The position numbers and the translations under genes are program-made. From a virus: a DNA stretch of 43,683 bases. The notes under the pieces were generated by a model, which was given only the letters and a program-made list of their open reading frames with translations, was not told the origin of the DNA and ran no database searches. Location: IMG/VR virus record IMGVR_UViG_3300043478_000025. The stretch is one strand, 5' to 3'. This document shows, in pieces, positions 11,954 through 39,155 of this stretch; positions within the stretch are counted from its first letter, which is position 1, and every line of letters begins with the position of its first letter.

Positions 11954-12043
11954 CCGGGGAACTGGACCACCTTTGGGAGTATGAGCACAGTTCCCCGGCT
12001 GCCTAATCTACACGGTGGGTGGAATCACCGTTGACTGTAGATT
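11954..12043 (-). repeat. Two tandem long hairpins in the leader of gene 11483..11920
   Basis: Perfect 11-bp arms ccggggaactg (11954-11964) / cagttccccgg (11988-11998). An 8-bp pair aatctaca (12005-12012) / tgtagatt (12036-12043) encloses an inner cggtg/caccg stem. The second hairpin belongs to the CTACA family. Confidence 0.7.
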
Positions 12044-12049
12044 GGCAAG

Positions 12050-12089
12050 TGGTCGATGCTGGAATCGAACCAGCTATTCCTTTTCGACC
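12050..12089 (-). ncRNA. tRNA-like acceptor/T-arm mimic 1 (no D or anticodon arm)
   Basis: Minus-strand sense: GGTCGAA-AAGGAATA-GCTGG-TTCGATT-CCAGC-ATCGACC-A. It has a canonical T-loop, a 5-bp T-stem, a 6-bp acceptor-like stem and discriminator A. It overlaps the stop of CDS 12074..12280. Confidence 0.4.
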
Positions 12090-15361: not shown

Positions 15362-15708
15362 TAAGAATCACCGTCGATGTAGATGGTACCTTCTCGTTCG
15401 ATCAACTCTCGCACGAACTGTAGGCCACGCTTCTTGGTGTTGTGGCCTACACCCTTGAGAAGATAACCGGGAGGGTAAACACGCCTCTCGTAAATCTTCT
15501 CCGTCATCATGCGATTGTATGACCTAGCCCAGAAAGCACCGCAGGAACTGCATTCACGATAGACCGGCCAGCCGTAAGGAACAGCCAACCAAGGATCAAT
15601 CAACTTGGGTCGCATCCATGCATGACGATCGACTCTACAGTCCAAGTATTCGTCTGGATACTCTTCCAGAATCTCGTTGTAGGACTTGATGTCATTCTCC
15701 TTCGGCAC
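15361..15708 (-). CDS. Hypothetical protein (115 aa from GTG 15708; the ORF track extends to 15771)
   Basis: RBS GAAGGAGAG lies 7 nt before the GTG at 15708. The longer version would overlap the Cys-rich ORF by ~80 nt. Contains DCRVDRH...ECSSCG, a possible metal site. Confidence 0.55.
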   Translation of the reverse strand: MPKENDIKSYNEILEEYPDEYLDCRVDRHAWMRPKLIDPWLAVPYGWPVYRECSSCGAFWARSYNRMMTEKIYERRVYPPGYLLKGVGHNTKKRGLQFVRELIEREGTIYIDGDS

Positions 15709-15847
15709 CTGGGCACTCTCCTTCTGGTAACTCGAACGCACAGTAGACACAGTCTCGCTTGAGACAAGCACCGTTGCAAGTGCAGTCTAGGAAGCTGTAA
15801 GCTCTCCCGTCTCTCTTTATGACGGGGTACTCACTCGGGTCCTTCAT
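15692..15847 (-). CDS. Cys-rich mini-protein (51 aa, 7 Cys)
   Basis: Own translation: MKDPSEYPVIKRDGRAYSFLDCTCNGACLKRDCVYCAFELPEGECPGAEGE. Start and stop overlap both neighbours. Confidence 0.4.
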   Translation of the reverse strand: MKDPSEYPVIKRDGRAYSFLDCTCNGACLKRDCVYCAFELPEGECPGAEGE

Positions 15848-16004
15848 CGTCCTGTCTCTCTTCTATCATGTCTAGTAGTTTCCTAGCAAAGTCTTCGGCG
15901 TCGATCTGCTCTTTCTCATGGTCTCGCAGATGCAACAAGAACAATGACCCTAGAGTCACTATCATGGTGAACATAGCTGCCAATAGAAGCAAGATCGGAA
16001 CCAC
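15831..16004 (-). CDS. Small membrane protein (57 aa, GTG start)
   Basis: Own translation: VVPILLLLAAMFTMIVTLGSLFLLHLRDHEKEQIDAEDFARKLLDMIEERQDDEGPE. GGAGG lies 4 nt upstream of the GTG. The plus-strand ORF 15868..16197 is judged a shadow. Confidence 0.5.
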   Translation of the reverse strand: MVPILLLLAAMFTMIVTLGSLFLLHLRDHEKEQIDAEDFARKLLDMIEERQDDEGPE

Positions 16005-16005
16005 T

Positions 16006-16179
16006 TTACCTCCGGAAGAGTCGATCCAAGAGTCGATTCAACCAACCGGGGTTTTCTGGAAGAACCCTGCGATGCTCCGGCCTGTTGCAGTCATGCAACC
16101 CGTATTCGCTTATCTCAACTTCGTTGAGTTTGAACAACCTCCCGCAACCCATGCAGGAGAAGTAACCATCTTGTGCCAT
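16006..16179 (-). CDS. Small protein (57 aa) with a CxxC pair
   Basis: Own translation: MAQDGYFSCMGCGRLFKLNEVEISEYGLHDCNRPEHRRVLPENPGWLNRLLDRLFRR. Preceded by the conserved leader AACTACTACAGAAAGAGACACTG and hairpin 16206-16236. Confidence 0.5.
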   Translation of the reverse strand: MAQDGYFSCMGCGRLFKLNEVEISEYGLHDCNRPEHRRVLPENPGWLNRLLDRLFRR

Positions 16180-16205
16180 CAGTGTCTCTTTCTGTAGTAG
16201 TTTGG

Positions 16206-16236
16206 GGAACTACACCAGGACATCTAGTGTAGAACC
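16206..16236 (-). repeat. GGAACTACA-family intergenic hairpin (copy b)
   Basis: Plus strand: ggaactacac-caggacatcta-gtgtagaacc. The stem CTACAC/GTGTAG is flanked by conserved GGAA...AACC (two mismatches then two G-C pairs). It lies 16 nt after the stop at 16252. Confidence 0.75.
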
Positions 16237-16251
16237 CGAAGCCACTACAGG

Positions 16252-16446
16252 CTACTCGTGAAGCTCAATTGAAAGTGACTCCGGGTCTTCGAGAAGTTCG
16301 CCGATGTCGAGAACTCCCTGATCCCAGTCGTAACTCAGAGTCTCACAGACTTGTGCCGGAGTCGGTTCCGGTGCGTCCAGTTCTATCTCCTTGTAGTCGT
16401 TGGTATCGACCCGGATGATTACTGTTACCTTGATGGGAATGATCAT
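16252..16446 (-). CDS. Hypothetical acidic protein (64 aa)
   Basis: ORF-track ORF with RBS GGAGAAGAG just upstream. Confidence 0.6.
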   Translation of the reverse strand: MIIPIKVTVIIRVDTNDYKEIELDAPEPTPAQVCETLSYDWDQGVLDIGELLEDPESLSIELHE

Positions 16447-16447
16447 T

Positions 16448-16618
16448 TTACTCTTCTCCTGTATCTACCGGGGGTCCGTCGTAACTACAGTCTCTCGGTT
16501 GAGAGAGTTCGTCGTAGCAAACGCTACTGTTGTTCTCGGAGCGAATCCACAACCCAACCAGAAGTGCTACGACCATCGCTATGATCAGCATCCTGATTAC
16601 TTTCCAGTCGTCGGACAT
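16448..16618 (-). CDS. Small membrane protein (56 aa)
   Basis: Own translation: MSDDWKVIRMLIIAMVVALLVGLWIRSENNSSVCYDELSQPRDCSYDGPPVDTGEE. RBS GAGGAG lies 9 nt upstream. Preferred over the overlapping track ORF 16524..16754. Confidence 0.5.
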   Translation of the reverse strand: MSDDWKVIRMLIIAMVVALLVGLWIRSENNSSVCYDELSQPRDCSYDGPPVDTGEE

Positions 16619-16680
16619 CGTTATCTATCTCCTCACAAGCCTGTAGTATTAGTCTTAGATGGTAGTCTGTAGTTCCGTAA

Positions 16681-16977
16681 TCACGTTTGGATAAGCTTGA
16701 CATCGGCGTCCTGTATGTAGAGGGTTTCGTTGTGACGGAAGAAACGGTGCGCAACTACAACGCACCGCCCTTCTTCCTCTTGAACGCCGTTCACTCTACC
16801 TGTAAGATGGTCTACACTCAGCGGAACGTACTTTCGCACGCTGTAGCTAAAACGCAACGCACTGATGTTGCTGTTGTAGTTGAACGTTCGCACCGCAGGC
16901 ATTTCTACTATCTCACCCGAAGGCAAGTAAATTGCCGTTACTCCTTGGTCAGTTATCTCTTCCTTCTGTCGTGGCAT
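16681..16977 (-). CDS. Hypothetical protein (98 aa from ATG 16977; the track ORF extends to GTG 17070)
   Basis: A strong RBS GAGGAGAAGT lies before the ATG at 16977. No RBS precedes the GTG at 17070. Confidence 0.55.
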   Translation of the reverse strand: MPRQKEEITDQGVTAIYLPSGEIVEMPAVRTFNYNSNISALRFSYSVRKYVPLSVDHLTGRVNGVQEEEGRCVVVAHRFFRHNETLYIQDADVKLIQT

Positions 16978-17088
16978 ACTTCTCCTCACGCCAACTCGGC
17001 CCATACTTCCTCGGAGAACATATCTATAGGCATCATTGCGATGAGTAGTATCAGTCCCTCGAAGAAACACTTGATGAGATAGTCATTC

Positions 17089-17268
17089 TCAGGCACTTGC
17101 TCTCCTTAGTTGTTCTGAAAGTCTGACGTGATTGATGTTGACGAACTTCTGGTACATCATCGCAGCACCAACGAACTTCTTGTGATCGGCGGTGCTGTTG
17201 TTTCGTCGTCGGTAGTAGTTGACGAGAAGCGAGAACGCTTCTGTTTGCTTCTCTGCTTGCGTTTGCAT
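17089..17268 (-). CDS. Small basic protein (59 aa)
   Basis: Own translation: MQTQAEKQTEAFSLLVNYYRRRNNSTADHKKFVGAAMMYQKFVNINHVRLSEQLRRASA. TAATG overlap with the upstream stop. One residue below the track cut-off. Confidence 0.45.
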   Translation of the reverse strand: MQTQAEKQTEAFSLLVNYYRRRNNSTADHKKFVGAAMMYQKFVNINHVRLSEQLRRASA

Positions 17269-17510
17269 TAGGACAGCTCCCTCATCACAGTCACGATGCG
17301 GTTCTCACAGTCGGCTAGTTCGGTGAGAATGTTCTTCTGGATGATCCGAAGAAGCGAGAGTTCGTAGTTCTTGGCCGAACGGCGAGTTGCGAACAGAACG
17401 CAGCACTTGCACTTCATTCGACCTAGTTCGATGAAGCTGCCGGAATCGAACTCCGTGAACTGCGGAGGACCGTCGTAGATCCCATCGCTCACTTTGTAGT
17501 ACGTGGTCAT
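17268..17510 (-). CDS. Hypothetical protein (80 aa)
   Basis: ORF-track ORF with RBS AAGGAGAAACGA before the ATG. First gene after hairpin 17537-17562. Confidence 0.65.
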   Translation of the reverse strand: MTTYYKVSDGIYDGPPQFTEFDSGSFIELGRMKCKCCVLFATRRSAKNYELSLLRIIQKNILTELADCENRIVTVMRELS

Positions 17511-17536
17511 TCGTTTCTCCTTAGTAGTAAGCTGGA

Positions 17537-17562
17537 GGAACTACACCCTGAGGTGTAGAACC
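17537..17562 (-). repeat. GGAACTACA-family intergenic hairpin (copy a)
   Basis: Plus strand: ggaactacacc-ctga-ggtgtagaacc. 7-bp stem with a 4-nt loop and conserved GGAA/AACC flanks. Lies 18 nt after the SNF2 stop. Confidence 0.8.
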
Positions 17563-17579
17563 TTCAACCGGCTACTGGT

Positions 17580-19541
17580 TCACTTCTTGTTGAGCCAGTC
17601 CTGGAGCTTGTTTCTCCATTCACTGGCCCGGAGTGCTGTGTGTTCGGTGATTCCTTCCGCCTCCATGATCTTGTCTTCGCAAATGCCGTCGATGATGTTG
17701 TCGACAGTTCCGTCGCAGATGTACTTGTGAACCGTTACCGGCTCCAAGCAATCGAGCCTCCAAGCTCGATCTTCTGCCTGTAGGTTCCGCTGTGGGTTGT
17801 ACCAACGATCCAACATGATGACGTTGGAACTTCCTCCATCCCACCGCTTGTCTTTGTGTAGATTCAGACCTTCGGCGCCGGCTCCCATGTTCAGGATCAG
17901 GACGTTGATCTTGTTGTCCTGGAAATCCTTCTCGATGTCTGCCGTATCTCTGGTCGTAAGCCTCTTGTCTCCGGTGATGGCTTCGCAGGACAATCCCATC
18001 TCCTTGAATCGCTCCATGAGATAAGCGATCGGAGAGTTGAACTGAGCACTGAAGATCAGAACGTTCTCCTTCTCGGACATGACCAACTCGAAGACATGCT
18101 CTGCGCAGTAATCGAGCTTGACGAGAGGACCGTTCAGGTGCTTGAGCACCTTCTTCTTCTGGATGTTCCCGTCGTTGTCCTTGATGATGAACCCGTTCTG
18201 GTCCTTGATCGGAACCGAAACGTTGAAGTCCTCAGCGACCAGCGAGATGCGAGCGTAGTGGAGTTCTGCCAGGATTCCGGCAATGGAAACCATGTCGTCG
18301 CCGAGTTCGTCCAGCTTGATCATGAAGTCTTCCATGACCTGCTTCTGGAAGTTCCAGAGATCGCTTCCTGGACTCATCTCCACGAAATGCTCCTGGTAGA
18401 GCTTGTCGTGCATGAACAAGCCGATTTCCTTCTTCGTCTTGCGGAAGAAGTTCGCTGAGATGACTCGCATGATGAGTTCGATCGAGATTCCGATCGAGTA
18501 AGCCATCATGAAGGTCCGCTTGAAATGCTGACGGCTCGGGAACTGAACGGGATTGAACAAGTGGGTGTAAGCCCAGACTTCTTCGCTTCCGTTGTTGATC
18601 AGAGAACCCGACATGAAGATCGGGAACGGACGACCTTCGGCCTTAACCTCGAAAGCGTCATCGTTCCATTGGTACTTGGAATGTCCGGCCGGCAATGCAA
18701 CTACACGCATGCTTTCGGTTCCGTGGAGAAGCTTCTTGAGTCCCAACCACATCTTGGTAGGACCAGAAGCGTTTGCACCACCACGAAGTCGGTGCATTTC
18801 GTCGACTGCGATGACCATCCAATCACGCTGCTCGAACTCCTTCATGAGAGAAGTGTTCAGAGCTTCGTAGTTGGTGATGTAAGTTTCCGGAAGTCCGGCA
18901 GCCTGTAGGGTTTCGCCCATGAAGTTCAACATGGCGACTCTGGTGTCGGAAGCTCCGAGAAGAGGAACGATGTTCAATCCCCATTCCTTGCACTGACGAG
19001 CGGAAGACTTCACGAGTGCGCTCTTAGTCAGCCAAAGACACGGAGCCTTCGGAAACAAGATGCGCAAGCCTCGGATCGTCATTGCGGTCTCAGCAGTCTT
19101 ACCGAGCGAGGTATCGTTTGCGTTGAAGATACCCCACTGACCGGTAACTTCTGGACGCAGGAAACGATCCCACGAGAAGATCAGATCTGCCTTCTGGTAG
19201 TCTCGGAGCTTTGTCCACTCCGGCCACTGGCTTACGCCAGAAAGGATCTTCTCCAACGGAGGGTTGGTAAGGTCCGGTTCCTTCTGAAGCTTCTCACGAG
19301 CTTCCATCTTCGCTCGTGCCAAACCTCGTTCGGCGACTTCCAGATCTGTTCTTGCGTTCGTCTTCTGGAAGTAGGCGGTCTGCTTCTTCTGACGAGCAAC
19401 CTCCAACTTCTCTCGGAGTTCGTTGAGTTGGACTGAAAGCTGGCGGACTTCCTCGTCCAGAGTATCGTACTCCGAATCCAAGTCCTGGATGCTTTCGGTT
19501 AGCTCACGAACCTTGTCACTGAAATCTTCGATGTCTCCCAT
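17580..19541 (-). CDS. SNF2/RAD54-family helicase with an N-terminal coiled coil (653 aa from ATG 19541)
   Basis: Motif I DTSLGKTAE, motif II DEMHRLRGG, motif V GAGAEGLNL, motif VI WYNPQRNLQAEDRAWR. The track start at 19625 would translate through hairpin 19585-19616. ATG 19541 is preceded by ACGAGAGAGAAC. Confidence 0.85.
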   Translation of the reverse strand: MGDIEDFSDKVRELTESIQDLDSEYDTLDEEVRQLSVQLNELREKLEVARQKKQTAYFQKTNARTDLEVAERGLARAKMEAREKLQKEPDLTNPPLEKILSGVSQWPEWTKLRDYQKADLIFSWDRFLRPEVTGQWGIFNANDTSLGKTAETAMTIRGLRILFPKAPCLWLTKSALVKSSARQCKEWGLNIVPLLGASDTRVAMLNFMGETLQAAGLPETYITNYEALNTSLMKEFEQRDWMVIAVDEMHRLRGGANASGPTKMWLGLKKLLHGTESMRVVALPAGHSKYQWNDDAFEVKAEGRPFPIFMSGSLINNGSEEVWAYTHLFNPVQFPSRQHFKRTFMMAYSIGISIELIMRVISANFFRKTKKEIGLFMHDKLYQEHFVEMSPGSDLWNFQKQVMEDFMIKLDELGDDMVSIAGILAELHYARISLVAEDFNVSVPIKDQNGFIIKDNDGNIQKKKVLKHLNGPLVKLDYCAEHVFELVMSEKENVLIFSAQFNSPIAYLMERFKEMGLSCEAITGDKRLTTRDTADIEKDFQDNKINVLILNMGAGAEGLNLHKDKRWDGGSSNVIMLDRWYNPQRNLQAEDRAWRLDCLEPVTVHKYICDGTVDNIIDGICEDKIMEAEGITEHTALRASEWRNKLQDWLNKK

Positions 19542-19584
19542 GTTCTCTCTCGTTTGTGTGTTGTCCGCCAGTCGAGTAACTGGT

Positions 19585-19616
19585 GGAACTACAGCAACTG
19601 TAGTTGCTGTAGAACC
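19585..19616 (-). repeat. GGAACTACA-family intergenic hairpin (copy g)
   Basis: Plus strand: ggaactacagcaac-tgta-gttgctgtagaacc. 10-bp stem with conserved flanks. Lies 10 nt after the stop at 19626. Confidence 0.8.
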
Positions 19617-19625
19617 GTCAATCAC

Positions 19626-19904
19626 TCACAAGCCCTTGCTTGGTCCCCAAGGAGTTGTGACTCCTTGTATGCGAACCCAGTGTTCTCTGTAGTAATCGAG
19701 ATCCTGCTTCGCCAGATCGGCCATTGTTTGGCCGTTGTTCGGATCGAGTTCCGTTGGCTGATCCGAGAAGCAGTAGTAACCGTCTGAGCTTTCTATGAAC
19801 TCCTCGACTTCTTCGTCTTGCATGTCTTCCGGGATTGCTACGATCGCACAACCGTCAAGCTGTGAGAACGTGGTTCCGTCGGCGAGTACCATGACCCACT
19901 TCAT
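19626..19904 (-). CDS. Hypothetical acidic protein (92 aa)
   Basis: ORF-track ORF. The alternative-frame ORF 19618..19851 is judged a shadow. Confidence 0.6.
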   Translation of the reverse strand: MKWVMVLADGTTFSQLDGCAIVAIPEDMQDEEVEEFIESSDGYYCFSDQPTELDPNNGQTMADLAKQDLDYYREHWVRIQGVTTPWGPSKGL

Positions 19905-19908
19905 AATG

Positions 19909-20091
19909 TCAGTCGTCCTCTTGTAGTTCGTACTTGGCCATGTGTTCGGCGCAGAACGGGTTGTACTTGCGGACCTTGGTCGATCCGACTTCGTCTCCGT
20001 CCCAAACCATCTTGTACTGCACTTTCTTCTCGCAGTACACGTTCTTCCCGTCCTTGTTGACGAGCCAACGGCAGGAATGCTTCAGTGTCAC
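19909..20091 (-). CDS. Small Cys/His protein (60 aa, GTG start)
   Basis: KHSCRW...VYCEKK...FCAEH is a possible zinc site. Preceded by the leader CCAACTAACGAAAGAGACAGAA and hairpin 20115-20145. Confidence 0.55.
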   Translation of the reverse strand: MTLKHSCRWLVNKDGKNVYCEKKVQYKMVWDGDEVGSTKVRKYNPFCAEHMAKYELQEDD

Positions 20092-20114
20092 TTCTGTCTC
20101 TTTCGTTAGTTGGG

Positions 20115-20169
20115 GGAACTACAGGAAGTTGTTCCTGTAGAATCCTCAAGCAACGAAGGGAACTACACC
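20115..20169 (-). repeat. GGAACTACA-family hairpin (copy c) plus an extra half-site
   Basis: Plus strand: ggaactacaggaa-gttg-ttcctgtagaatcc (20115-20145, 9-bp stem). An additional ggaactaca lies at 20159-20167, directly after the stop at 20171. Confidence 0.75.
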
Positions 20170-20170
20170 T

Positions 20171-20356
20171 TCATGCTTTCTCGATGTCGTTACCGTCGAT
20201 CCACTCGTCTAGCTCGGTGTCGTCGAAACGAACCAGGCAACGAATGACCAGAAGTGAATCCTCCGAAGTGTCGATCTCGCACACTTGGAGAGTTCCTGTC
20301 ATCTCTTCGTTCCCGATGACTCGGACCTTGTCGCCTACGTAGAAGTCGGTAGCCAT
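20171..20356 (-). CDS. Hypothetical small protein (61 aa)
   Basis: ORF-track ORF and the first gene after promoter 20441-20469. Leader is CGACTACTGAAAAGAGACAGAGA. Confidence 0.6.
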   Translation of the reverse strand: MATDFYVGDKVRVIGNEEMTGTLQVCEIDTSEDSLLVIRCLVRFDDTELDEWIDGNDIEKA

Positions 20357-20440
20357 TCTCTGTCTCTTTTCAGTAGTCGGCTTTAAGTAGCAAACGCTAC
20401 GGTGCGCCGCCCGGTAGGCAGTACCCTGGCGGGTGCGGAC

Positions 20441-20479
20441 ATCTTAGCATAGGTCCCTTAGCTTGTCAATAGCTAAGGG
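20441..20479 (-). promoter_or_regulatory. Near-consensus sigma70-type promoter with its -35 box centred in a perfect 9-bp palindrome (operator candidate)
   Basis: Minus strand: TTGACA (20469-20464), 17-nt spacer, TAAGAT (20446-20441). Palindrome cccttagct (20455-20463) / agctaaggg (20471-20479) brackets the -35 hexamer. Confidence 0.65.
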
Positions 20480-20607
20480 AGAAAGCTTTTCGTAGAAAGG
20501 TAGAACTGGTTTCAAGGGAACTACAGTTAAAAGGCTTTAAGTGGCCCACTTTCCACGAAGAAATTCGGGAAGCGAACGGGTTATGGGGGGGCGAACAGGC
20601 GTTCGGT

Positions 20608-20792
20608 TGTAGAGATCTCTACATCTGTAGATTTGTCTACAGTTGGGGTGTAGAGATTCCTACAGGCCGACAGGGGGTCTGACCTGCGGTTTGTCGAGAA
20701 GTCTACAGGGGCGGTGTAAGAATCTCTACCAGCCGCTTGGAAGGGGTGAAACCCCAATTCCAAGGGCGGAGTGGAATGTAGACATCTCTACA
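20608..20792. repeat. Cluster of TGTAGA/TCTACA palindromes plus a strong stem-loop (candidate origin or multi-operator)
   Basis: tgtagagatctctaca 20608-20623 (perfect 16 bp). ctgtaga-tttg-tctacag 20625-20642. gtgtag-agattc-ctacag 20648-20665. tctaca...tgtaaga 20702-20721 (imperfect). tgtaga-catc-tctaca 20777-20792. Stem-loop cttggaaggggt-gaa-accccaattccaag at 20736-20764. Confidence 0.75.
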
Positions 20793-20875
20793 GGGGCGTC
20801 GAAACCTCTACACGACTTATAGGCGTTTTCCGCTACTGTAGGATCAATACGGACCCCAAACTAACGGAAATTGGT

Positions 20876-20957
20876 AAGCGGCCACGTAGCTGTATGACCC
20901 CGCGTGTTACAAAGTTGTCATACTTTAAAGCGGCCCTGTAACTGTATGAACCCCGCC
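20876..20957. repeat. Imperfect ~29-bp direct repeat pair
   Basis: aagcggccacgtagctgtatgaccccgcg (20876-20904) versus aagcggccctgtaactgtatgaaccccgcc (20928-20957), about 25 of 29 positions identical. The spacer holds tgttacaaagt, which also occurs in the 22.6-kb control region. Confidence 0.7.
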
Positions 20958-21006
20958 GCCGGCGGTTCGGCGAACGCCGTTCGTCTTTCGACGTTCGGCC
21001 GAACGT
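20955..21006. repeat. GC-rich CGAACG/CGTTCG palindromes
   Basis: ccgccggcgg 20955-20964, cgaacg-c-cgttcg 20971-20983, and the perfect 16-bp acgttcggccgaacgt 20991-21006. A related cgaac-aggc-gttcg lies at 20592-20605. Confidence 0.65.
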
Positions 21007-21007
21007 A

Positions 21008-21025
21008 GGGGAGGTTTCCCTCCCC
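21008..21025 (-). terminator. Stem-loop terminator candidate after gene 21032..21256
   Basis: Minus-strand GGGGAGG-GAAA-CCTCCCC: perfect 7-bp stem with a GNRA-type tetraloop, 6 nt after the stop. There is no clear U tract. Confidence 0.5.
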
Positions 21026-21031
21026 GTCGTT

Positions 21032-21256
21032 CTAGCAGTCGTAGCCGGCGCAGTAGAGGATATCCTCTTCCGCCTTGTTCCAGTTCGAGGCGTACTGTTC
21101 GGCGAGAATGAGTAGGACGTGTTCTGCCATCTCTACCTGCCCGGAGTCGATTCCGTGCTTCTCGACGGCCCGAGTGTAGTACCCCGCCGCTTTCACGAGA
21201 AGCGGATACCGCTCGCACTTTCGGATTTCGTTCATCTGCTCTTCGGTCATGAACAC
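21032..21256 (-). CDS. Hypothetical protein (74 aa)
   Basis: ORF-track ORF, starting at GTG 21256 or ATG 21250. The overlapping ORF 20925..21284 is judged a shadow. Confidence 0.6.
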   Translation of the reverse strand: MFMTEEQMNEIRKCERYPLLVKAAGYYTRAVEKHGIDSGQVEMAEHVLLILAEQYASNWNKAEEDILYCAGYDC

Positions 21257-21337
21257 AGTCTATCCTGCCTCTTGTCGTTTCCACCGATCGGCGGAGGGAA
21301 TCTCCGGAAACTTCTCCCCGGAGACTCCCCTCGCAGA

Positions 21338-22144
21338 TCAGCCGACCTTCGTCAACCAGATCTTCCGGTTCTCGTGAAGGACCGCTTTCTTCGGCTCTTC
21401 GTCACCGACGGCGAAGTAGTCGGAGTGCCAGTTGTCGAACTTCTCCGCAATCTCCGCCGGCTTCTTGACGCCGAAGAGCTTGAAAGCCGCTTCTCCGAGC
21501 GTGGCGCACTCGAATAGCGCACCGTTGACCACGAACTTGACGTTCGTGTTGTGCGCTCGGAGCGCTCCGACGTTCGTCACCGTGACTTCGGCAGACTTCT
21601 CCGCCGGAGCGTTTGGGATGATCCACGTTCCGTCTTCTCGCCTCCCACCGAACTTCTTGATCGTCGGGAGATCGAGGATCATCTTGACGGTCATCTTCTC
21701 GATCACGCCCTGCTCGATCATCGTGACAGTTCCGTTCAGAACCTTCACGAGCGTCGCCCGAACTTCTCCGAGATCCGTGTCGGCCGGAATCTGTCCCCGG
21801 ACGTTCTTCTGCGCATAGCGCCCGAAGAGCTCGGAGAGCAGAACGGTCATGAGATCGTTCAGCTTTCGCTGGAAGAGCAGGAGACCGTTCGTGGTCGCCG
21901 TCGTGAACATCCATTCTTGGATGTTCGTCAGTTCCGGGAGCTCTTCGGTCGACTTTTCGTCGATCGACTGCGCCGCTTTCCACTGAGCGAAGTTCTGGTC
22001 GAACTTCCCCGTCAAGATCTGGTGTGCCAGATCGTAGAAAGCCGCCTTCTCTTCCAGGATCCGCAGACCGTTGTTCACGGACGAATCCTCGTGATAGACC
22101 ACTTCCGGAGTCTCCGCCGGTTCGGTCGTGTTCTCGTCTTCCAT
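21338..22144 (-). CDS. Abundant-looking early protein (268 aa), function unknown
   Basis: Strong G/C-ending codon bias gives long shadow ORFs (21402..22214, 21551..22171, 21432..21818). Leader is CAAGAAAGAGGCAAGC. No TGTAG/CTACA inside the gene. Confidence 0.75.
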   Translation of the reverse strand: MEDENTTEPAETPEVVYHEDSSVNNGLRILEEKAAFYDLAHQILTGKFDQNFAQWKAAQSIDEKSTEELPELTNIQEWMFTTATTNGLLLFQRKLNDLMTVLLSELFGRYAQKNVRGQIPADTDLGEVRATLVKVLNGTVTMIEQGVIEKMTVKMILDLPTIKKFGGRREDGTWIIPNAPAEKSAEVTVTNVGALRAHNTNVKFVVNGALFECATLGEAAFKLFGVKKPAEIAEKFDNWHSDYFAVGDEEPKKAVLHENRKIWLTKVG

Positions 22145-22183
22145 GCTTGCCTCTTTCTTGTGCCAGCCTAGTTGCTGGTGGAG

Positions 22184-22205
22184 CCATTCTACCGTGGCAG
22201 AATGG
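22184..22205 (-). repeat. Variant intergenic hairpin with the family flanks but a different stem
   Basis: Plus strand: gg-ag-ccattct-accgtggc-agaatgg-aa-cc. It keeps the GGAR...AACC frame of the GGAACTACA hairpins while the 7-bp stem sequence differs. Confidence 0.55.
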
Positions 22206-22230
22206 AACCATCAACCTCCGAGCCGCTATT

Positions 22231-22425
22231 TCAGTAGTCCAGCCAGCAAAGCCTAGGGCCGTGCGCTCCCGGATCCGTGAGATGAACTACCATCGGCGCC
22301 ATCGTCGGGATGAATACCATCTCCGTGACAGTGTGCGTCGGGTCGAACTTCTCGCAGCACACTATGATGGCGCCCCATTCGTCACGCCGTGACCAGACTT
22401 GCATCTCGATCTCGTTCTCGTTCAC
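22231..22425 (-). CDS. First early gene, hypothetical (64 aa from GTG 22425; track ORF from TTG 22479)
   Basis: AGCGAGAGGGACAAA-GTG matches the conserved purine-rich leader. The longer version would start inside the predicted -35 box. Confidence 0.5.
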   Translation of the reverse strand: MNENEIEMQVWSRRDEWGAIIVCCEKFDPTHTVTEMVFIPTMAPMVVHLTDPGAHGPRLCWLDY

Positions 22426-22451
22426 TTTGTCCCTCTCGCTTGTGTAGTTCC

Positions 22452-22479
22452 ATTCTAGCGTCCGATTCCCGTTTCGCAA
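22452..22479 (-). promoter_or_regulatory. Sigma70-type leftward early promoter candidate
   Basis: Minus strand: TTGCGA (22479-22474), 16-nt spacer, TAGAAT (22457-22452), immediately followed by GGAACTACA. Confidence 0.55.
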
Positions 22480-22577
22480 CTCCGCTCCGAAACTTTCTTT
22501 CGGATCCGATTCTTGCGTTCCGTCCGTTTCGCTTGTGATATCAGTTTACCGGGTCCGGCCGGAAACCCACGCCGAAA

Positions 22578-22765
22578 CGTGTTACAAGATCTTGTAATAT
22601 TGTGACGAACCGAAATATTACGGTAATACTGCGATCGTGTGACAAGTGTTACGATTCGTAATATAGTGCTCGCTATATTACGATTGTTACAAAGTCATGA
22701 CATTGTAATATAATGCGTGCTATATTACGGGCCTGTTACGATTGTTACAGTTGTATTACGAAATC
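22578..22765. repeat. AT-rich repeat array of GTTACA / GTAATAT boxes in the divergent control region
   Basis: Perfect 16-bp palindrome ttacaagatcttgtaa at 22582-22597. 10-bp arms cgtaatatag/ctatattacg at 22657-22682. 8-bp arms gtaatata/tatattac at 22705-22728. 14-bp direct repeat ttacgattgttaca at 22678-22691 and 22736-22749. Confidence 0.8.
22686..22714 (+). promoter_or_regulatory. Rightward (late-operon) promoter candidate embedded in the palindromes
   Basis: GTTACA (22686-22691), 17-nt spacer, perfect TATAAT (22709-22714). The -10 lies inside palindrome 22705-22728. A second TATAAT is at 22898-22903. Confidence 0.4.
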
Positions 22766-22966
22766 GGTCAGAGTTTGACTTGGTCCCCCGTAGAGCGCGT
22801 AGCCCCAATTCAGATAAAATTTTCCCAAATTAGCAAAACATTCCAAATCCTATTAAGTTACCCCCTCCCCTCGGTGGTCCTCCTGGCGACGTGTGTATAT
22901 AATAGCCTCCATCGCCCCACGCGACCAGGTCGAAGGCTGCCCCGCCCCACCCTACTCGGAGCTAAC

Positions 22967-23371
22967 GTGACTAATAACCCATTGGTCTCTTTCCGAAACC
23001 GTCTCGGTTTAACTCAACTCGAACAGGCTCATCAGTGTGCTCTAGCTGTAGTCCTCATTCAAGCCCAAGAAAAAGGCATTCCTCACCATTTACACCCGCG
23101 CTTCCTCTCGACGTTCCCTGACGCCGTCGAATTAATTCCTGCCTACCATGACTTCCGAACTTCAGTTCGCAGAGAGAATTGGCCTCGGGGTGTAACTGTA
23201 GTTCCCAGTAACGGCCCAGAATTCGCTGAATTCCTGCGTTCGAGTGGCCTCAGCGGAGCTGAGTTCAGTGAGAAGGCATGTATGCCGTTGATAGACATTA
23301 ACTACACCCTACACCATTACCGCATCCCGAGTACACTTATTCGCTTTTTTGAGGAAATCAATGGCCAGTAA
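22967..23371 (+). CDS. Putative DNA-binding protein with two HTH-like segments (134 aa, GTG start)
   Basis: GGAG lies 5 nt before the GTG at 22967. FRNRLGLTQLEQAHQCALAVVLIQAQEKG and FAEFLRSSGLSGAEFSEKACMPLIDIN resemble XRE-type HTH. The track's N-terminal extension from 22742 runs through the repeat array. Confidence 0.5.
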   Translation: MTNNPLVSFRNRLGLTQLEQAHQCALAVVLIQAQEKGIPHHLHPRFLSTFPDAVELIPAYHDFRTSVRRENWPRGVTVVPSNGPEFAEFLRSSGLSGAEFSEKACMPLIDINYTLHHYRIPSTLIRFFEEINGQ

Positions 23372-24056
23372 GCAAGTCCAGTCGACTGTAGCTCTCATTG
23401 AGACGTATTACTGGAAGTTCCGTCGCTTGCCGACGTCTGACGAAGAACTCTTCAGAGAGTACCTCGTTGAAACCTGCCTAGCCGAAGTCTTCGCTAACGC
23501 GAGGTACCTTAAGTACCTGAGCGCTAACGGGGTTCCTGTAGACGGGACGCCTACTCTGACTCCGAAACAAGTGCGATGGATCGACTTACTATGCTCCGCC
23601 GGAGATGGTCGACCAATTGCGGCTAAGATGAAGAGCTTCGGAATCACGCTCTCACAGCACAACGCTTGGCTTAAGAACCCGTTGTTCCAGAGTGCCCTAC
23701 AGACACGTCTTGAACAAATTCTACCAGACGAGCGTTCTAGAGTTCACCAAGCGCTAAGCCGTGAAGCTTCTGGTGGAAACGTTAGTGCCATCAAGCTTTA
23801 CTTAACGCTAACGGGAGAGCTAACAGAAGGAACAAGCTCCGATAAATCGGAGGCAGCTAATCTCATGCAAGGGATTCTCGAAATTCTTGAGGCCCACGTC
23901 GACAGAAACGTGCTTTCAGCTCTCGCCAACGATTTCGATTACTTGCTCGTGCACGGCACGCCACCGGCTCGTAAGCTTAGGGCTGTAGGAGCTGTAGTTT
24001 CCGAAAAAACCGAGAACGTACTGGAATTGGTACTAAACGATGACGACATTTCGTGA
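23361..24056 (+). CDS. terS: Terminase small subunit (231 aa from ATG 23361)
   Basis: Lies immediately upstream of and overlapping TerL. An HTH-like block (IAAKMKSFGITLSQHNAWLKNPLFQSAL) is typical of small terminases. RBS GAGGAA lies before the ATG. Confidence 0.6.
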   Translation: MASKQVQSTVALIETYYWKFRRLPTSDEELFREYLVETCLAEVFANARYLKYLSANGVPVDGTPTLTPKQVRWIDLLCSAGDGRPIAAKMKSFGITLSQHNAWLKNPLFQSALQTRLEQILPDERSRVHQALSREASGGNVSAIKLYLTLTGELTEGTSSDKSEAANLMQGILEILEAHVDRNVLSALANDFDYLLVHGTPPARKLRAVGAVVSEKTENVLELVLNDDDIS

Positions 24057-25509
24057 AGAATTCGCTGGATCCCTTCGTAGAAGGGTAACGTCGCCGAGCT
24101 TGCTCGGGTACACGCCGTACGAAATTCAGGAGAAATTCCATGCCAGCGACGCCATCGGACGTCTTCTTCTGGGAGGAAACAGGGCAGGGAAAACTGTTTC
24201 CGGAGCCACAGAGGCGTCATTCTGGCTCACTGGTAATCATCCTTACAGACGAATACCGGAACCTCCCGTTTTCGGCAGAGGAGTTAGCGTCGATATTGAG
24301 CAAGGTCTCAAGAAAATTATGCTCCCCGAACTCGACAGATGGCTTCCTCGAAGCGCGCTTGTCTCCGGAAGTTGGGAGCAGAGTTACGATAAGCAAAGTC
24401 GTGTTCTCACTCTAGCTAACGGCAGTAAGATGGACTTCCTCACAGGCGAGATGGATACTGAAAAGCACGCTGGTACTTCTCGTAATTTTTGTTGGATCGA
24501 CGAAGAACCGCCTGAAAGCATATTTAACGAGAACATGCTACGACTGGTTGATGTACAGGGTAATTGGTGGATGACAATGACGCCAGTTCTCGGAATGACT
24601 TGGGTCTACAGGAGAATCTACGAACCGTTCACCGAGGGAAACCTACACGATGAAGCAGCAGTGTTCCAAGCACCCTCAGAGTACAACCCTTTCCTTCCTC
24701 CTGGGGCTCTTGACGCAATGCTCGCTGGAATGTCAAGCGAAGAACGGGAAGCTAGGAAGTACGGCAAATTCGTCGCTGCTTCTGGTCTTGTTTATCCTAG
24801 TTTTAATCCTGCTCTCCATGTCGTCGATAGTATTGACCCTAGTGCTGTAGTTCACCCGATAATCACCGGAATGGATCATGGGCTCAGGAATCCGACGGCT
24901 TGGTTGTGGGCTTACGTGGACAATGAAGGACGGATTATTGTCTTCCATGAGTATTACGAGGCAGAACGAACAATCACCGAACACGCCTCCGAAGTTAACT
25001 TCTGGGAGCGAACCAGGAATATTCAGTTCAAGGTCAATTATCGTGTTGGCGACCCTTCCATCTCCCAAAGAAACGCAGTCAACGGAGAGTCGGTTCAATC
25101 CGAGTATTCTCGCGACGATGTCTTCATTGGGCTTGGAAACAATGACGTACCCTACGGACTTAATCGAGTGCGTCGTTTGTTGGATACCCGAGGACTTCTC
25201 ATTACTAACGATTGTACCCATCTTATCAGAGAGCTACATACTTATAGATGGTCCCAATTTGCCAGTATGAAGGCCAGGGAAGCCAAGCAACCAAAGGAAG
25301 CCCCTGAAAAAAGAAACGATCACGCCGTTGATGCACTTAGATACCTTGTGTGCTCTCGCCCGGAAAACGAATGGGGAGGTGCAGACGTTCCTCATTTTGA
25401 GCCAAGGACCCCCTCGCATACTGTTCCTAGAGATGAAGAGTACACCGAACGAGACTTCCTAGGTTCGGATAACGACAAGTACCATCCAGTGTTAGGAGAT
25501 GATTGGTGA
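24040..25509 (+). CDS. terL: Terminase large subunit
   Basis: Walker A LLGGNRAGKT, Walker B FCWIDEEP, and nuclease-domain acidic motifs ITGMDHG and DHAVDALRY. 489 aa. Confidence 0.9.
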   Translation: MTTFREEFAGSLRRRVTSPSLLGYTPYEIQEKFHASDAIGRLLLGGNRAGKTVSGATEASFWLTGNHPYRRIPEPPVFGRGVSVDIEQGLKKIMLPELDRWLPRSALVSGSWEQSYDKQSRVLTLANGSKMDFLTGEMDTEKHAGTSRNFCWIDEEPPESIFNENMLRLVDVQGNWWMTMTPVLGMTWVYRRIYEPFTEGNLHDEAAVFQAPSEYNPFLPPGALDAMLAGMSSEEREARKYGKFVAASGLVYPSFNPALHVVDSIDPSAVVHPIITGMDHGLRNPTAWLWAYVDNEGRIIVFHEYYEAERTITEHASEVNFWERTRNIQFKVNYRVGDPSISQRNAVNGESVQSEYSRDDVFIGLGNNDVPYGLNRVRRLLDTRGLLITNDCTHLIRELHTYRWSQFASMKAREAKQPKEAPEKRNDHAVDALRYLVCSRPENEWGGADVPHFEPRTPSHTVPRDEEYTERDFLGSDNDKYHPVLGDDW

Positions 25510-25745
25510 GCGACCAACTTGCAGAGCAAATTGAACAGACGATGGGATTTCATCCTGGAAACGCTAACGTCGCTAATGTTTATGCTGAGCTACGTGAACG
25601 TTTTCGGGATCTTGCTCATCATGTTAACGAAGTCTGCCCCGATGGTCGTCTTAAGTCCCTAGCAGTCACACATCTCGAAGACGCTTTAATGCGTTCAATC
25701 CAAGCCGTCGCGGTGTCGCAACCTCTCGGACCGGAGCGTATCTGA
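25506..25745 (+). CDS. Hypothetical protein (79 aa)
   Basis: AGGAG (25494-25498) lies 7 nt before the GTG at 25506, and the start overlaps the TerL stop. Confidence 0.6.
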   Translation: MSDQLAEQIEQTMGFHPGNANVANVYAELRERFRDLAHHVNEVCPDGRLKSLAVTHLEDALMRSIQAVAVSQPLGPERI

Positions 25746-26263
25746 TGAACAGGGACTGTAGGATTTATCGTCGGAGTACGCTCCTACAGATGAAAGAAGG
25801 CGATCCGGATTGGGAAGAAACTGTCGATAGTCTAGAGGTTGTTAGCCCTGTAGGTGGAAAAGATGCGCGATTTCAGCTCCTTACCACTGGATTGCAGCTT
25901 CCTGCGTGTAGTTTCGTCTCCCGCAGTATCGACGACGTGTGGTTCTTGGACACCGGGGTTGATTTCGACGGCGGTAGAATGTACATCGGAGAAAAAGACT
26001 TCGTCGGATTGGCCTCTGTCGCTGGGTACGTGTCTAAGGCAAGCGCTAGCCGAGTTTACGAGGAAAATGAGAGACTAAACCGTGATCTCACTATTGCTCG
26101 GAATCTTATCCGGGACCTCCGCGCTGCTGTGGCTGGGTTGGTGGGTGCCGCTCCGGTGGAAGGAAGTGAAAATGCGAGAGCTAGAAAACGAACAGATTCG
26201 GATGAACCTCTCTCACTCGGAACAGAAGCAAACCCTTCGGATCTGGACCTTGATGCTCTCTAA
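25745..26263 (+). CDS. Hypothetical protein (172 aa)
   Basis: ORF-track ORF with a TGATG overlap to the upstream stop. Confidence 0.65.
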   Translation: MNRDCRIYRRSTLLQMKEGDPDWEETVDSLEVVSPVGGKDARFQLLTTGLQLPACSFVSRSIDDVWFLDTGVDFDGGRMYIGEKDFVGLASVAGYVSKASASRVYEENERLNRDLTIARNLIRDLRAAVAGLVGAAPVEGSENARARKRTDSDEPLSLGTEANPSDLDLDAL

Positions 26264-26420
26264 TGAAGCAGGTGTAGCTGTTACCGAAGGTGAATCACCC
26301 CCGCCCGATGTGTTTGTAGTTCCCGATGAGTTCGATGACGAACCTGTAGTTCTCGTTGATGATGACGATGAAGATGCACGGTTCTTGATGGGGGTGCTGA
26401 ACATTGACCATGATGGATGA
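26253..26420 (+). CDS. Small acidic protein (55 aa)
   Basis: In-frame ATG at 26253 within track ORF 26082..26420. Starting at 26082 would overlap the previous CDS by ~180 nt. Sequence: MLSNEAGVAVTEGESPPPDVFVVPDEFDDEPVVLVDDDDEDARFLMGVLNIDHDG. Confidence 0.45.
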   Translation: MLSNEAGVAVTEGESPPPDVFVVPDEFDDEPVVLVDDDDEDARFLMGVLNIDHDG

Positions 26421-28416: not shown

Positions 28417-28443
28417 TTTGCTACTAACAAAGTGAGATTGTAA

Positions 28444-29301
28444 ATGTCTGATGCGATGGGAAGCGACGATCTTTCTGGCCAACTTAGCGGAGCTATTGGC
28501 GGCGATGAAGGATATGAGCCAGACCCAGGCGGCGAAACTGTAGTTCCGGAAGTACAAGAAGGTCCGAAACTATCAGCTTTTGCCCAGAACTATTTGAACA
28601 CTGTTCCTGACGCCGAGCGTGATATCGTTACTCGACACGTTCAGCAATGGGATAAGGGATTCAGCAAGTACGCCGACGGTATCTCCAGGAAATACGGTCA
28701 ATACGACCAACTTGGGGATTTTGATCAGGTTCAACAGGCTGTTCAACTAGCCCAACTAATTACGCAGGATCCTAATACTGCTACTCAATGGCTACTTAGT
28801 CAGGGTTATGGGCGTCAAGAAGCCGCACAAACGGTTCAGAACGCACAACAGGTCGCACAGCAAAACCCTCAGCAGCAACCAGGACAGCCAGGACAACCTC
28901 AGCAAGAATGGGTTCCTCCGGCCGTTCAGAGGGAACTACAGCAATACAAAATGGCTCTCGGGGCGATGAACCAACGCTTTGAGACCGACCAGTTCAACAG
29001 AGAAACCGAAAGGTACCAGCGAGAAATTGAGTCTGGACTCGCAGCGGTCAAATCTCAGTATCCTCAGATCCCCGAGACCATGATCCTTCATCTAATGAAG
29101 GGCGGGATGGAGATGGATGACGCTGTAGGTTTGATCGTAGAGCAAATCCAGGCGGGAGTTAATCAACGTCAAGCTCCCAATGCTCCAAGGGTACTCAGCT
29201 CGGCATCTTTGCCCCCACAAGCAGCGAAAGCGCCGTCAGAAATGACGGACGACGAACGGAAGGCGAGTTTACTCGCTGCCCTACAAGGAGCAATGGAATA
29301 G
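28444..29301 (+). CDS. Scaffolding protein
   Basis: Sits between portal and capsid. Gln-rich, helical-looking sequence (QQVAQQNPQQQPGQPGQPQQ). Confidence 0.6.
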   Translation: MSDAMGSDDLSGQLSGAIGGDEGYEPDPGGETVVPEVQEGPKLSAFAQNYLNTVPDAERDIVTRHVQQWDKGFSKYADGISRKYGQYDQLGDFDQVQQAVQLAQLITQDPNTATQWLLSQGYGRQEAAQTVQNAQQVAQQNPQQQPGQPGQPQQEWVPPAVQRELQQYKMALGAMNQRFETDQFNRETERYQREIESGLAAVKSQYPQIPETMILHLMKGGMEMDDAVGLIVEQIQAGVNQRQAPNAPRVLSSASLPPQAAKAPSEMTDDERKASLLAALQGAME

Positions 29302-30491: not shown

Positions 30492-30496
30492 ATTCT

Positions 30497-30543
30497 GGGG
30501 GAATAGCCGCCAACATCCGCCGTGTTCCCTCGGCTATTCCCCC
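30497..30543 (+). terminator. Perfect 13-bp stem hairpin after the capsid gene
   Basis: gggggaatagccg (30497-30509) / cggctattccccc (30531-30543) with a 21-nt loop and no U tract. Confidence 0.55.
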
Positions 30544-30576
30544 ATCTTCTCCCCTTGGGCGGGGTTGACTAATTGG

Positions 30577-30602
30577 GCCGGTCCTTCGGGGCCGGCTCTT
30601 TT
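30577..30602 (+). terminator. Canonical intrinsic terminator
   Basis: gccggtcc-ttcg-gggccggc (8-bp stem with one G.U, UUCG loop), followed by tctttt. Confidence 0.75.
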
Positions 30603-30617
30603 AGTAGGAGGCCTAAT

Positions 30618-33472: not shown

Positions 33473-33473
33473 A

Positions 33474-36653: not shown

Positions 36654-36656
36654 GCC

Positions 36657-36893
36657 ATGAATTTACAGGAAATGCTCATGGGCCTACAAGGTCCACCGAC
36701 AGCATCACAGAAGGTATTCGATCCACGAGGTTTAACAGGGGAGATGGCGAGAGGTAGTAATGTTTACCTCGGTGGCCTTCCCGCCGCACCGGGAGCCGGA
36801 CGACCAAGAAAACCAGCACCGGTCAACGCACAACAAATGAATCCGGCGCTCATGGCAGCGATCAATAAGAGGTTGGCTGGCTATGCCCATTAA
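36657..36893 (+). CDS. Virion-module hypothetical protein (78 aa)
   Basis: ORF-track ORF tightly packed in the late operon. Confidence 0.6.
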   Translation: MNLQEMLMGLQGPPTASQKVFDPRGLTGEMARGSNVYLGGLPAAPGAGRPRKPAPVNAQQMNPALMAAINKRLAGYAH

Positions 36894-39152: not shown

Positions 39153-39155
39153 TCT

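Follow-up and report, generated by a model that had tools for sequence, protein, structure and literature searches.

A covarying stem-loop family in the early gene gaps of a metagenomic phage genome, with RNase III-type processing as a tentative role

Five related stem-loops between early genes

The viral record IMGVR_UViG_3300043478_000025 (43,683 nucleotides; "the window" refers to this whole stretch of DNA) is in essence a complete metagenomic phage genome of about 43.7 kb, of which identical contigs of 43,684 and 43,697 bp are known. Its minus-strand gene block at 484-22425 is early, and the gaps between these genes hold a family of exactly five stem-loops of about 60 nt, all on the minus (mRNA-sense) strand, which are the subject of this analysis (E1 to E5; Table 1). 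The block codes for many small acidic proteins without database matches, and for an SNF2-type helicase (19541-17580, with the start taken from P0001), a PD-(D/E)XK nuclease, an AAA_24 ATPase, a primase-helicase, a family A DNA polymerase and a WhiB-like factor. Terminase, portal, capsid and virion proteins are encoded by a plus-strand block at 22742-42434. The gene architecture is the same as that of the Arthrobacter podophages Jasmine and Brad, and together with the WhiB gene it points to an actinobacterial host.

A DNA search of a phage collection with positions 15500-22600 yielded zero matches, and the nearest phage record, MW202795 (L058), showed protein identities of 27-35%. Relatives were retrieved with the helicase protein, and three of them, L059, L060 and L062, share 77-79% helicase identity with the window. 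L065-L068 are near-identical copies of the window, 0-2 bases apart, and thus provide no population-level covariation. Nothing was found in a helicase search of viral contigs, and a scan of metagenome contigs with helicase profiles, whose patterns were too generic, returned only relatives of 30% identity or less.

An earlier note on this DNA, made from its letters, had described four hairpins at 16206-16236, 17537-17562, 19585-19616 and 20115-20145 and a fifth one with an unrelated stem. The four are present, with upper stems of 9, 7, 10 and 9 bp, respectively, and different inner sequences. As proposed for the transcribed strand, two U.U mismatches are followed by two G-C pairs, so that the minus strand reads GG-UU-stem-loop-stem-UU-CC. 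The fifth hairpin, at 22180-22209, belongs to the same family, as it was matched by a covariance model built from relatives only (see below). The flanks had been called invariant, which they are not: the 20115-20145 copy carries TGTAGAATCC, and the fifth copy has CU in place of UU on its 3' side. The hairpins had also been drawn too short, since a covarying lower stem of 13-16 bp brings the helix to 22-26 bp.

At the base of each element is an outer stem, separated by a small loop from a middle stem (typically GRUUG/CARYU); above a single mismatch follow three base pairs (AGG/CCU), the UU x UU internal loop, an upper stem of 7-12 bp and a loop of 3-6 nt, usually 4. The five copies of the window form irregular helices of 22-26 bp with upper stems of 7-10 bp, mostly closed by a tetraloop. 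The conserved core is GRUUGA(A/C)GG-UU ... UU-CC(U/A)CCA, or UGAAGGUU...UUCCUNCA in sequence form. No conserved sequence was detected in the loops, which makes a loop-reading protein unlikely.

All five elements are found in gaps of 69-130 nt of the co-oriented gene block, downstream of predicted promoters and no further than 6.3 kb from the early promoter; the transcript itself is a predicted one. The 5' arm of the lower stem starts at the upstream stop codon or a few bases away from it, and the 3' arm stops just short of the ribosome-binding site. The GG flank follows the stop codon by 9-25 nt and the CC flank precedes the start codon by 23-43 nt, in agreement with the placement between stop and start codons noted earlier. 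In the full set, 11 of 15 copies have the CC flank 21-28 nt ahead of the next start, whereas the spacing to the upstream stop is loose. One L060 copy (7810) is located in a 5' untranslated region, with no gene upstream.

The same hairpin architecture occurs at the same places in L059, L060 and L062. We aligned 16 copies, five from the window and 11 from these relatives, chosen with a structure filter that required the upper stem and the two G-C pairs; the 11 lowest pairs played no part in that selection. Paired cells amounted to 88.8% of the alignment, compared with 65.7% in shuffles and 39-46% when the partners were slid. All 18 modelled pairs show changes on both sides, with a covariation score of 0.70 versus 0.27 that was reached by 0 of 500 shuffles. 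The orthologous hairpins that follow the helicase gene in the window, L059, L060 and L062 have unrelated upper stems (CUACACC, GCCUACAG, AACCACACC and CCUCUCA). Total helix length in the 16 copies is 24.7 +/- 1.7 bp (range, 22-28), and the lengths of the upper and lower stems are anticorrelated (r = -0.77).

Two covariance models were used, a full model and one built from the 11 hairpins of the relatives alone, with no window sequence. The relatives-only model recovered exactly the five sites of the window, on the minus strand, with 55, 44, 34, 31 and 24 bits (E values from 7e-13 to 6e-4), and nothing else in the window below an E value of 0.02. With filters off, the full model gave no further family member in the window. 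The stem complementarity, whose loss in homologous phages was to count against the earlier note's finding, is kept, with covariation, in L059, L060 and L062.

The modelled pairs include 36 G.U versus 15 A.C combinations when read in the sense orientation, with one position being G.U in 11 of the 16 copies, and sense strands scored 24-63 bits against at most 21 bits for antisense strands. This bias, the strand-specific scores and the position between stop codon and ribosome-binding site point to a structure formed by the early mRNA rather than to a duplex DNA site or a template-strand hairpin. In the more distant L063 and L150, a fully paired GGGAAC/GUUCC stands in place of the U.U loop, and the subtype represented by E5 is kept in L059, L060, L062, L063 and L150.

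Beyond these genomes, the full model did not match anything in 850 kb of unrelated viral DNA chosen for containing both conserved 8-mers. The pattern TGAAGGTT...TTCCTCCA gave chance hits among the matches listed from viral and genome collections, and GGAACTACA...TGTAGAACC gave 57 single chance hits in viral contigs, none of them protein-related. A search of the whole window against Rfam 15 found no family at the gathering score, and sensitive settings on 15800-22800 produced chance-level matches only.

The family is more restricted than had been thought. A sixth relative proposed at 12005-12043 lacks the GGUU/UUCC flanks and was matched by neither model at E<=10 with filters off. Nor does every larger early gap contain a member, as had been claimed; none is present in 20924-20357 (568 nt), 16680-16619, 15830-15772, 14258-14205, 13605-13538, 12073-11921, 10497-10393 or 8057-7924.

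Two other structures of the early block were noted. Upstream of the primase-helicase gene, the minus strand of 8057-7924 forms a long nested hairpin, with counterparts in L060 (21600-21700) and L062 (19620-19700); its terminator-like upper stem of 10-12 bp is G+C rich, is followed by UUUUCGGG and shows compensatory changes between the three genomes. An attenuator function is possible. Just 3' of a conserved gene for a protein of 268 amino acids (aa), the minus strand of 21285-21337 forms a very stable hairpin (-34 kcal/mol), GGGGAGUCUCCGGGGAGAAGUUUCCGGAGAUUCCCUCC, which is outside the GGUU/UUCC family; the related GGGGGAGAAAUCUCCCC is present in L059 (2753-2772) and L062 (5503-5522).

Table 1. 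Coordinates of the stem-loops and associated features in the window. Bit scores and E values are those of the relatives-only model, except where the full model is named.
Feature	Coordinates	Strand	Sequence features	Context	Helix, fold and model match
E1	22224-22165	minus	core 22209-22180: GG-UU-CCAUUCUGC-CACG-GUAGAAUGG-CU-CC; upper stem without CTACA	upstream of the conserved 268-aa gene (start 22144); overlapped by a -35/-10-like pair, TTGATG-17-TAGAAT (promoter scan)	23 bp; -31.4 kcal/mol; 30.9 bits, E 5e-6
E2	20159-20100	minus	core 20145-20115; 5' flank GGAUU, not GGUU; upper stem CUACAGGAA/UUCCUGUAG, loop CAAC	GTG start 20091, 23 nt downstream	25 bp; 23.6 bits, E 6e-4; full model, 49.5 bits
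E3	19631-19570	minus	core 19616-19585; 10-bp upper stem CUACAGCAAC, loop UACA	lower stem overlaps the stop codon of the upstream gene; SNF2-type helicase start 19541, 43 nt downstream	26 bp; -36.7 kcal/mol; 33.9 bits, E 8e-7
E4	17577-17522	minus	core 17562-17537; upper stem CUACACC/GGUGUAG, loop UCAG	directly 3' of the helicase stop codon; followed by ACUACUAAGGAG and ATG at 17510	55.4 bits, E 7e-13
E5	16251-16191	minus	core 16236-16206; subtype UAGUGGCU...AACUACUA, 9-bp upper stem	ATG 16179, 26 nt downstream	44.2 bits, E 1e-9
CTACA...TGTAG hairpin, not a family member	12005-12043	minus	AAUCUACA...UGUAGAUU		
Palindrome array	20601-20813		seven 15-16-bp copies of TGTAGAGATCTCTACA type within 210 bp; half-site TGTAG/CTACA		
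Predicted host-type early promoter	22479-22443 (-35/-10 at 22479-22452)	minus	TTGCGA-16-TAGAAT (promoter scan)	GGAACTACA directly after	
Second host-type promoter candidate	20469-20441	minus	TTGACA-17-TAAGAT, TG extension; 10/12 matches		

The 9-mer and a genome-wide word

The earlier note had taken as its signal the 9-mer GGAACTACA, counted 14 times where less than one copy was expected. We found the same coordinates and strands; 0.24 copies are expected, and 14 were reached in 0 of 100 shuffles. The count stands, but it had merged two things, the hairpin family and a genome-wide word, and the excess of the latter inflates it. GGAACTACA is the reverse complement of the UUCC hairpin flank joined to the CTACA word, which supplies most of its copies, and is not itself the signal.

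No pentamer of the genome is more strongly over-represented than CTACA/TGTAG, which has 249 copies against 151 expected under a Markov model and about 85 if only base composition is considered. Compared with synonymous-codon shuffles, its excess in coding DNA is two- to three-fold in both orientations (119 versus 57 and 86 versus 28; z about 10-13), and in the window it is present in all allowed reading frames and evenly spread on both strands. The extended consensus is ggAACTACAs, the window containing 53 copies of AACTACA and 15 of CCTACAGG. Ten copies of GGAACTACA are found outside the hairpins where about 3 would be expected after allowing for the 53 AACTACA sites, indicating that the word is really a degenerate 9-10-mer. 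CTACA...TGTAG pairs in coding DNA number 15, against about 13.5 expected from the abundance of the word. Thus, there is no surplus pairing, and outside the early gaps the word occurs as single sites.

The relatives over-use words of their own: CCACA/TGTGG in L059 and L062, CTACA in L060, and CCTACAGG in MW202795 (28 copies). Arthrobacter phage Brad (L152) over-uses CTGTGGG (40 copies, 27:13 between strands) and has no such hairpins. The upper stems of the L059 and L062 hairpins contain CCACA, the word of these genomes, and the word is missing from the upper stem of E1, of four of the six L060 copies and of seven of the 11 copies from relatives on which the models draw. The CTACA word is selected at the DNA level throughout the genome and appears to settle in hairpin stems, where complementarity alone would be constrained. 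Chi-like and primase-site functions are possible readings of the word; they were considered in the light of its lack of strand polarity in the window and its 2:1 strand bias in Brad.

The half-site TGTAG/CTACA also makes up the palindrome array, which is inside the non-coding, highly structured 568-nt gap at 20924-20357. Relatives have palindrome arrays of other sequences at the same place, and that of L062, CCACAnnTGTGG, is its own genome-wide word. The array looks like iterons, an origin or operators, and it suggests a dimeric DNA-binding protein that reads the TGTAG half-sites of the CTACA word. For the conserved 268-aa early protein encoded beside it, a predicted model (pLDDT 73) had no fold match in the PDB. 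A word that differs between related phages (CTACA, CCACA, CCTACAGG or CTGTGGG) represents a lineage-wide signal at the DNA level, perhaps one with a function in replication, recombination or binding.

A second 9-mer, AGAAGTTCG, occurs 10 times (8233, 12702, 16292, 17142, 17172, 18446, 21436, 21649, 21759 and 22344). All copies are in early coding DNA, eight of the 10 in sense orientation, and a recurrent peptide (E/K-K-F), rather than a signal in the DNA, may lie behind them.

Promoters, start sites and possible roles

Host-type promoters were predicted in the early region (Table 1). GGAACTACA covers the expected start-site region of the promoter at 22479-22452 in sense orientation, and the first early gene starts at GTG 22425. 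This arrangement is kept as TTGGAA-16-TAGACT-GGAAC(C/T)ACAC in L059 (1890-1926) and L062 (4614-4655). The second candidate is located inside the 568-nt gap, upstream of the gene at 20356, and three plus-strand candidates are found in the divergent region at 22639-22726. The same divergent promoter region (22600-22760; L059, 1470-1600; L062, 4010-4140) contains two to three copies of a 24-26-bp palindrome, GTAATATA-N8-TATATTAC, which overlap the rightward promoter candidates and are kept in the relatives. They probably form an operator through which the phage switches between its two gene arms.

ACUAC occurs within 32 nt upstream of 13 of the 42 early starts, versus 3.7 expected, mostly at -18 to -24 and also where the upstream DNA is coding (examples are the starts at 22425, 20356, 19904, 17510, 16179, 14204, 13347, 8684 and 3762). 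It precedes none of the 19 late starts. The sequence beside the ribosome-binding site reads ACUAC(U)AAGGAG or GAAAGAGAC.

Pfam and PHROG scans of about 50 proteins revealed no RNA polymerase, RNase III, repressor or RNA-binding domain, leaving the WhiB-like factor as the sole candidate regulator. The earlier note had likewise recognised no phage RNA polymerase gene and was concerned that a reader of the signal was missing. With hairpin promoters disfavoured and host-type promoters present, that concern is largely moot.

Three further ideas were tried and rejected. For a sigma-70 promoter inside the hairpins, only E1 offers a plausible -35/-10 pair, and elsewhere the variable stem length breaks the spacing. 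A role of the 3'-arm CCUCC as an anti-ribosome-binding-site sequence fails at E2, E3 and E5, whose sites (GAAAGAGA, GAGAGAGA) do not pair with it. Finally, an N-like antiterminator was sought among the first early proteins, which are acidic and none of which is arginine rich.

Three roles had been offered for the hairpins: RNase III-type processing sites, terminators or attenuators without a U-tract, and hairpin-type promoters or operators. The first fits best, given the covariation, the G.U bias, the sense-strand scores and the near-constant helix length, the cleavage itself being a prediction; canonical terminators are not supported, and hairpin promoters are disfavoured. Starting from a family whose strand, structure, conservation and position are observed, we tentatively propose, with a probability of roughly 0.4, that the hairpins are T7-like processing or stability elements of the early mRNA made of double-stranded RNA, with a predicted cleavage, enzyme and effect on expression. 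The five elements would act in cis as stem-loops of a polycistronic early mRNA that runs leftward (minus strand) in an actinobacterial podophage and is probably transcribed by the host RNA polymerase from sigma-70/sigA-type promoters. A double-strand-specific endonuclease, most likely the host RNase III, would recognise the helix of about two turns, and the tandem U.U internal loop would direct or limit the cut. The early mRNA would thereby be divided into segments that end in protective hairpins, and the ribosome-binding site of the gene 23-43 nt downstream would be left free. An idealised RNase III substrate has 22 bp, or two helical turns, and internal loops restrict the enzyme to single-strand cuts that leave stabilising 3' hairpins (PMC3867540).

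Several points weigh against this proposal. Cleavage is purely something that we infer. RNase III needs little primary sequence, and the GGUU/UUCC core and GRUUGA/CCUCCA flanks are conserved beyond that need, so that the core would reflect common descent or an extra, sequence-specific reader. The U.U loop is not essential, being fully paired in L063 and L150, and the L060 copy at 7810 is in a 5' untranslated region rather than between genes. The pairs on which the structure filter acted, those of the upper stem and the two G-C pairs, are not independent evidence of covariation. The pointer to an actinobacterial host is the WhiB gene, and the host RNase III is putative. Lastly, the link to start codons and the ACUAC motif suit a role in translation initiation equally well.

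That role is the main rival, which we regard as somewhat unlikely, and it is compatible with processing. The hairpins would then be start-associated elements of translation or of 5' untranslated regions that act without cleavage, the helix bringing the stop codon beside the downstream ribosome-binding site, as an RNA version of the ESAS/SAS repeats discussed below. In variants of this idea, the helix insulates the ribosome-binding site from upstream sequence, or an RNA-binding protein of the phage or the host reads the GGUU/UUCC core. The tight distance to the next start combined with the loose distance to the upstream stop, and the copy that has no upstream gene, argue for it, as do the conservation of ACUAC(U)AAGGAG beside the ribosome-binding site, the restriction of ACUAC to early starts and a core conservation far in excess of what a double-strand nuclease needs. 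The SAS/ESAS of Cluster K and Cluster EF phages, which are unexplained, have the same layout (PMC3203893, PMC7302621, PMC12699233). However, the Pfam and PHROG scans revealed no RNA-binding protein encoded by the early genes, the loops are not conserved, L063 and L150 do without the U.U loop, and such a role does not call for a near-constant helix of about two turns.

It is doubtful that GGAACTACA and its inverted copies in the hairpins are binding sites in double-stranded DNA, for a repressor of operator or stoperator type or for a replication initiator, with the potential to form hairpins being secondary. The selection of CTACA/TGTAG on both strands of coding regions, the clustering of the seven TGTAGAGATCTCTACA palindromes, the different words over-used by the relatives and the position of the 9-mer over the early promoter's start-site region in the window, L059 and L062 are all in keeping with such sites, the reading that the authors of the ESAS paper preferred for their own repeats. 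The hairpins themselves behave differently. The spacing of their arms ranges between 8 and 14 nt with compensatory inner stems, their lower stems covary and contain no word, and E1 and seven of the 11 relatives' copies keep the structure without the word in the upper stem. G.U pairs and strand-specific model scores would not be expected of a duplex site, and the arm order CTACA...TGTAG is everted with respect to the TGTAG...CTACA palindromes. DNA sites therefore probably explain the word and not the hairpins.

Rather improbably, the hairpins and the word could form one undescribed system of Jasminevirus-like actinobacterial podophages, in which a phage factor reads (GG)AAC(T/C)ACA with a specificity that drifts between relatives. 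That factor would bind DNA at the iteron-like palindromes, the early promoter and hundreds of half-sites, and early mRNA at the start-associated ACUAC and the hairpin arms, which would couple replication or genome marking to early-gene shut-off. In a modest version, if true, these would be the first ESAS-type repeats shown to be RNA structures, opening a testable mechanism for repeats unexplained since 2011.

We consider it improbable that the hairpins are sites of transcription pausing, attenuation or factor-dependent termination without a U-tract, which would split the early operon into temporal classes and which a phage antiterminator might overcome. Stable upper stems followed by the pyrimidine run UUCCUCC, and the presence of the five copies within 6.3 kb of the early promoter, would suit such sites, and U-tract-poor terminators have been proposed for Actinobacteria. 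However, a terminator scan listed none of the five hairpins, whose upper stems are followed by just UU, so that a G+C-rich stem plus T-run is found in 0 of 5. Except at E1, there is no space for a new promoter before the next start, and the L060 copy precedes a first gene. The 3' arm of the covarying lower stem is located downstream of the would-be release site, where it would be superfluous, and no arginine-rich N-like early protein was found.

Very unlikely, finally, are promoters of N4 type or other single-strand initiation signals extruded from the DNA and read by a phage polymerase or primase: the hairpins are conserved upstream of early genes, and the phage has a primase-helicase and a 1092-aa virion-module protein (39156-42434) with no recognisable family and no PDB sequence match, but N4 promoters have a 5-7-bp stem and a 3-nt loop on the template strand and are used by a virion RNA polymerase, whereas here the structure-specific features are on the non-template strand, the stems have 7-12 bp plus a lower stem with loops of 3-6 nt, the lower stem spans the whole gap and requires both arms on one molecule, and host-type promoters are present and conserved.

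Some observations concern other parts of the genome and its relatives. On the minus strand of 12045-12073, CTGGTTCGATTCCAGCATCGACCA is similar to the T-arm plus 3' acceptor strand of tRNAs. No tRNA gene was called there, and a tRNA scan of the window found nothing; the sequence could be an attP-like core, with no integrase seen, or a tRNA remnant. In the packaging and head module, 25506-25745 on the plus strand encodes a 79-aa protein with the Pfam domain Acb2_Tad1_hairpin (public gene calls on an identical contig), which suggests an anti-CBASS or anti-Thoeris nucleotide sponge. L064 (ENA ERZ25039555 contig_5919, 291 kb) contains a truncated phage relative adjoining G+C-rich bacterial genes, in which the portal and terminase gene calls are fragmented and the helicase is cut to 431 aa (69% identity). 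It is a decayed prophage or a chimeric assembly, and it might point to the host.

Comparison with known systems

Functionally, the nearest model for the favoured processing elements is provided by the early RNase III signals of T7 (R0.3-R1.3; Dunn and Studier 1983; PMC3867540), of which there are five in an early precursor of about 7 kb. In both cases the host polymerase makes an early polycistronic mRNA with several related hairpins in its intergenic gaps, between the stop codon and the next ribosome-binding site, and five copies fall in the first 6-7 kb. The T7 signals are irregular helices of about two turns or slightly longer with an internal loop, comparable to the 22-28 bp and 2x2 loop found here. 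The two sets differ in that there is no sequence similarity and the core is far more conserved here, the loop is a symmetric 2x2 U.U loop instead of the larger asymmetric bubble of T7 sites, the host here is actinobacterial, and cleavage here is predicted. Intercistronic processing hairpins are textbook knowledge for T7 in Escherichia coli, and to our knowledge they have not been described for phages of Actinobacteria.

The stoperators of Cluster A mycobacteriophages are asymmetric sites of 13-14 bp, almost only non-coding, in one orientation and with a cognate repressor. The CTACA word is similarly short and asymmetric, has many genome copies, occurs near gene starts and the early promoter, and differs between related phages. 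Unlike stoperators, it has 5-9 bp and is mostly found in coding DNA on both strands, and no repressor was recognised in the Pfam and PHROG scans. Stoperators are mentioned in the paper that described ESAS (PMC3203893).

The nearest objects described in actinobacteriophages are the ESAS/SAS of Cluster K mycobacteriophages and Cluster EF Microbacterium phages (PMC3203893, PMC7302621). ESAS are imperfect inverted repeats with a variable spacer in large gaps, just upstream of a sequence that overlaps the ribosome-binding site; all copies have one orientation, and the consensus shifts between related phage groups, all of which is also true of the hairpins described here. ESAS are recognised by a 4-13-bp spacer, gaps of more than 50 bp and a single orientation, with which the present loops of 3-6 nt and gaps of 69-130 nt agree. 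In contrast, the arms here are not a fixed 17 bp, and the 13-bp SAS consensus, GGGATAGGAGCCC in Cluster K or GGGAAAGGACCCC in Cluster EF, differs from ACUAC(U)AAGGAG or GAAAGAGAC. The hairpins share the ESAS layout with unrelated sequences and are not members of the ESAS family. The authors of the ESAS study saw no support for RNA pairing in the departures of the two arms and preferred DNA-binding sites as an explanation, whereas here the covariation of 18 of 18 pairs, together with the G.U pairs, clearly supports an RNA helix. Start-associated inverted repeats have been catalogued in actinobacteriophages since 2011 without a mechanism, and their function was still unexplained in 2025 (PMC12699233). 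The five stem-loops provide a clear, cross-validated case in which start-associated repeats are RNA helices of the size handled by double-strand nucleases, and the covariance model is now at hand for finding further such hairpins.

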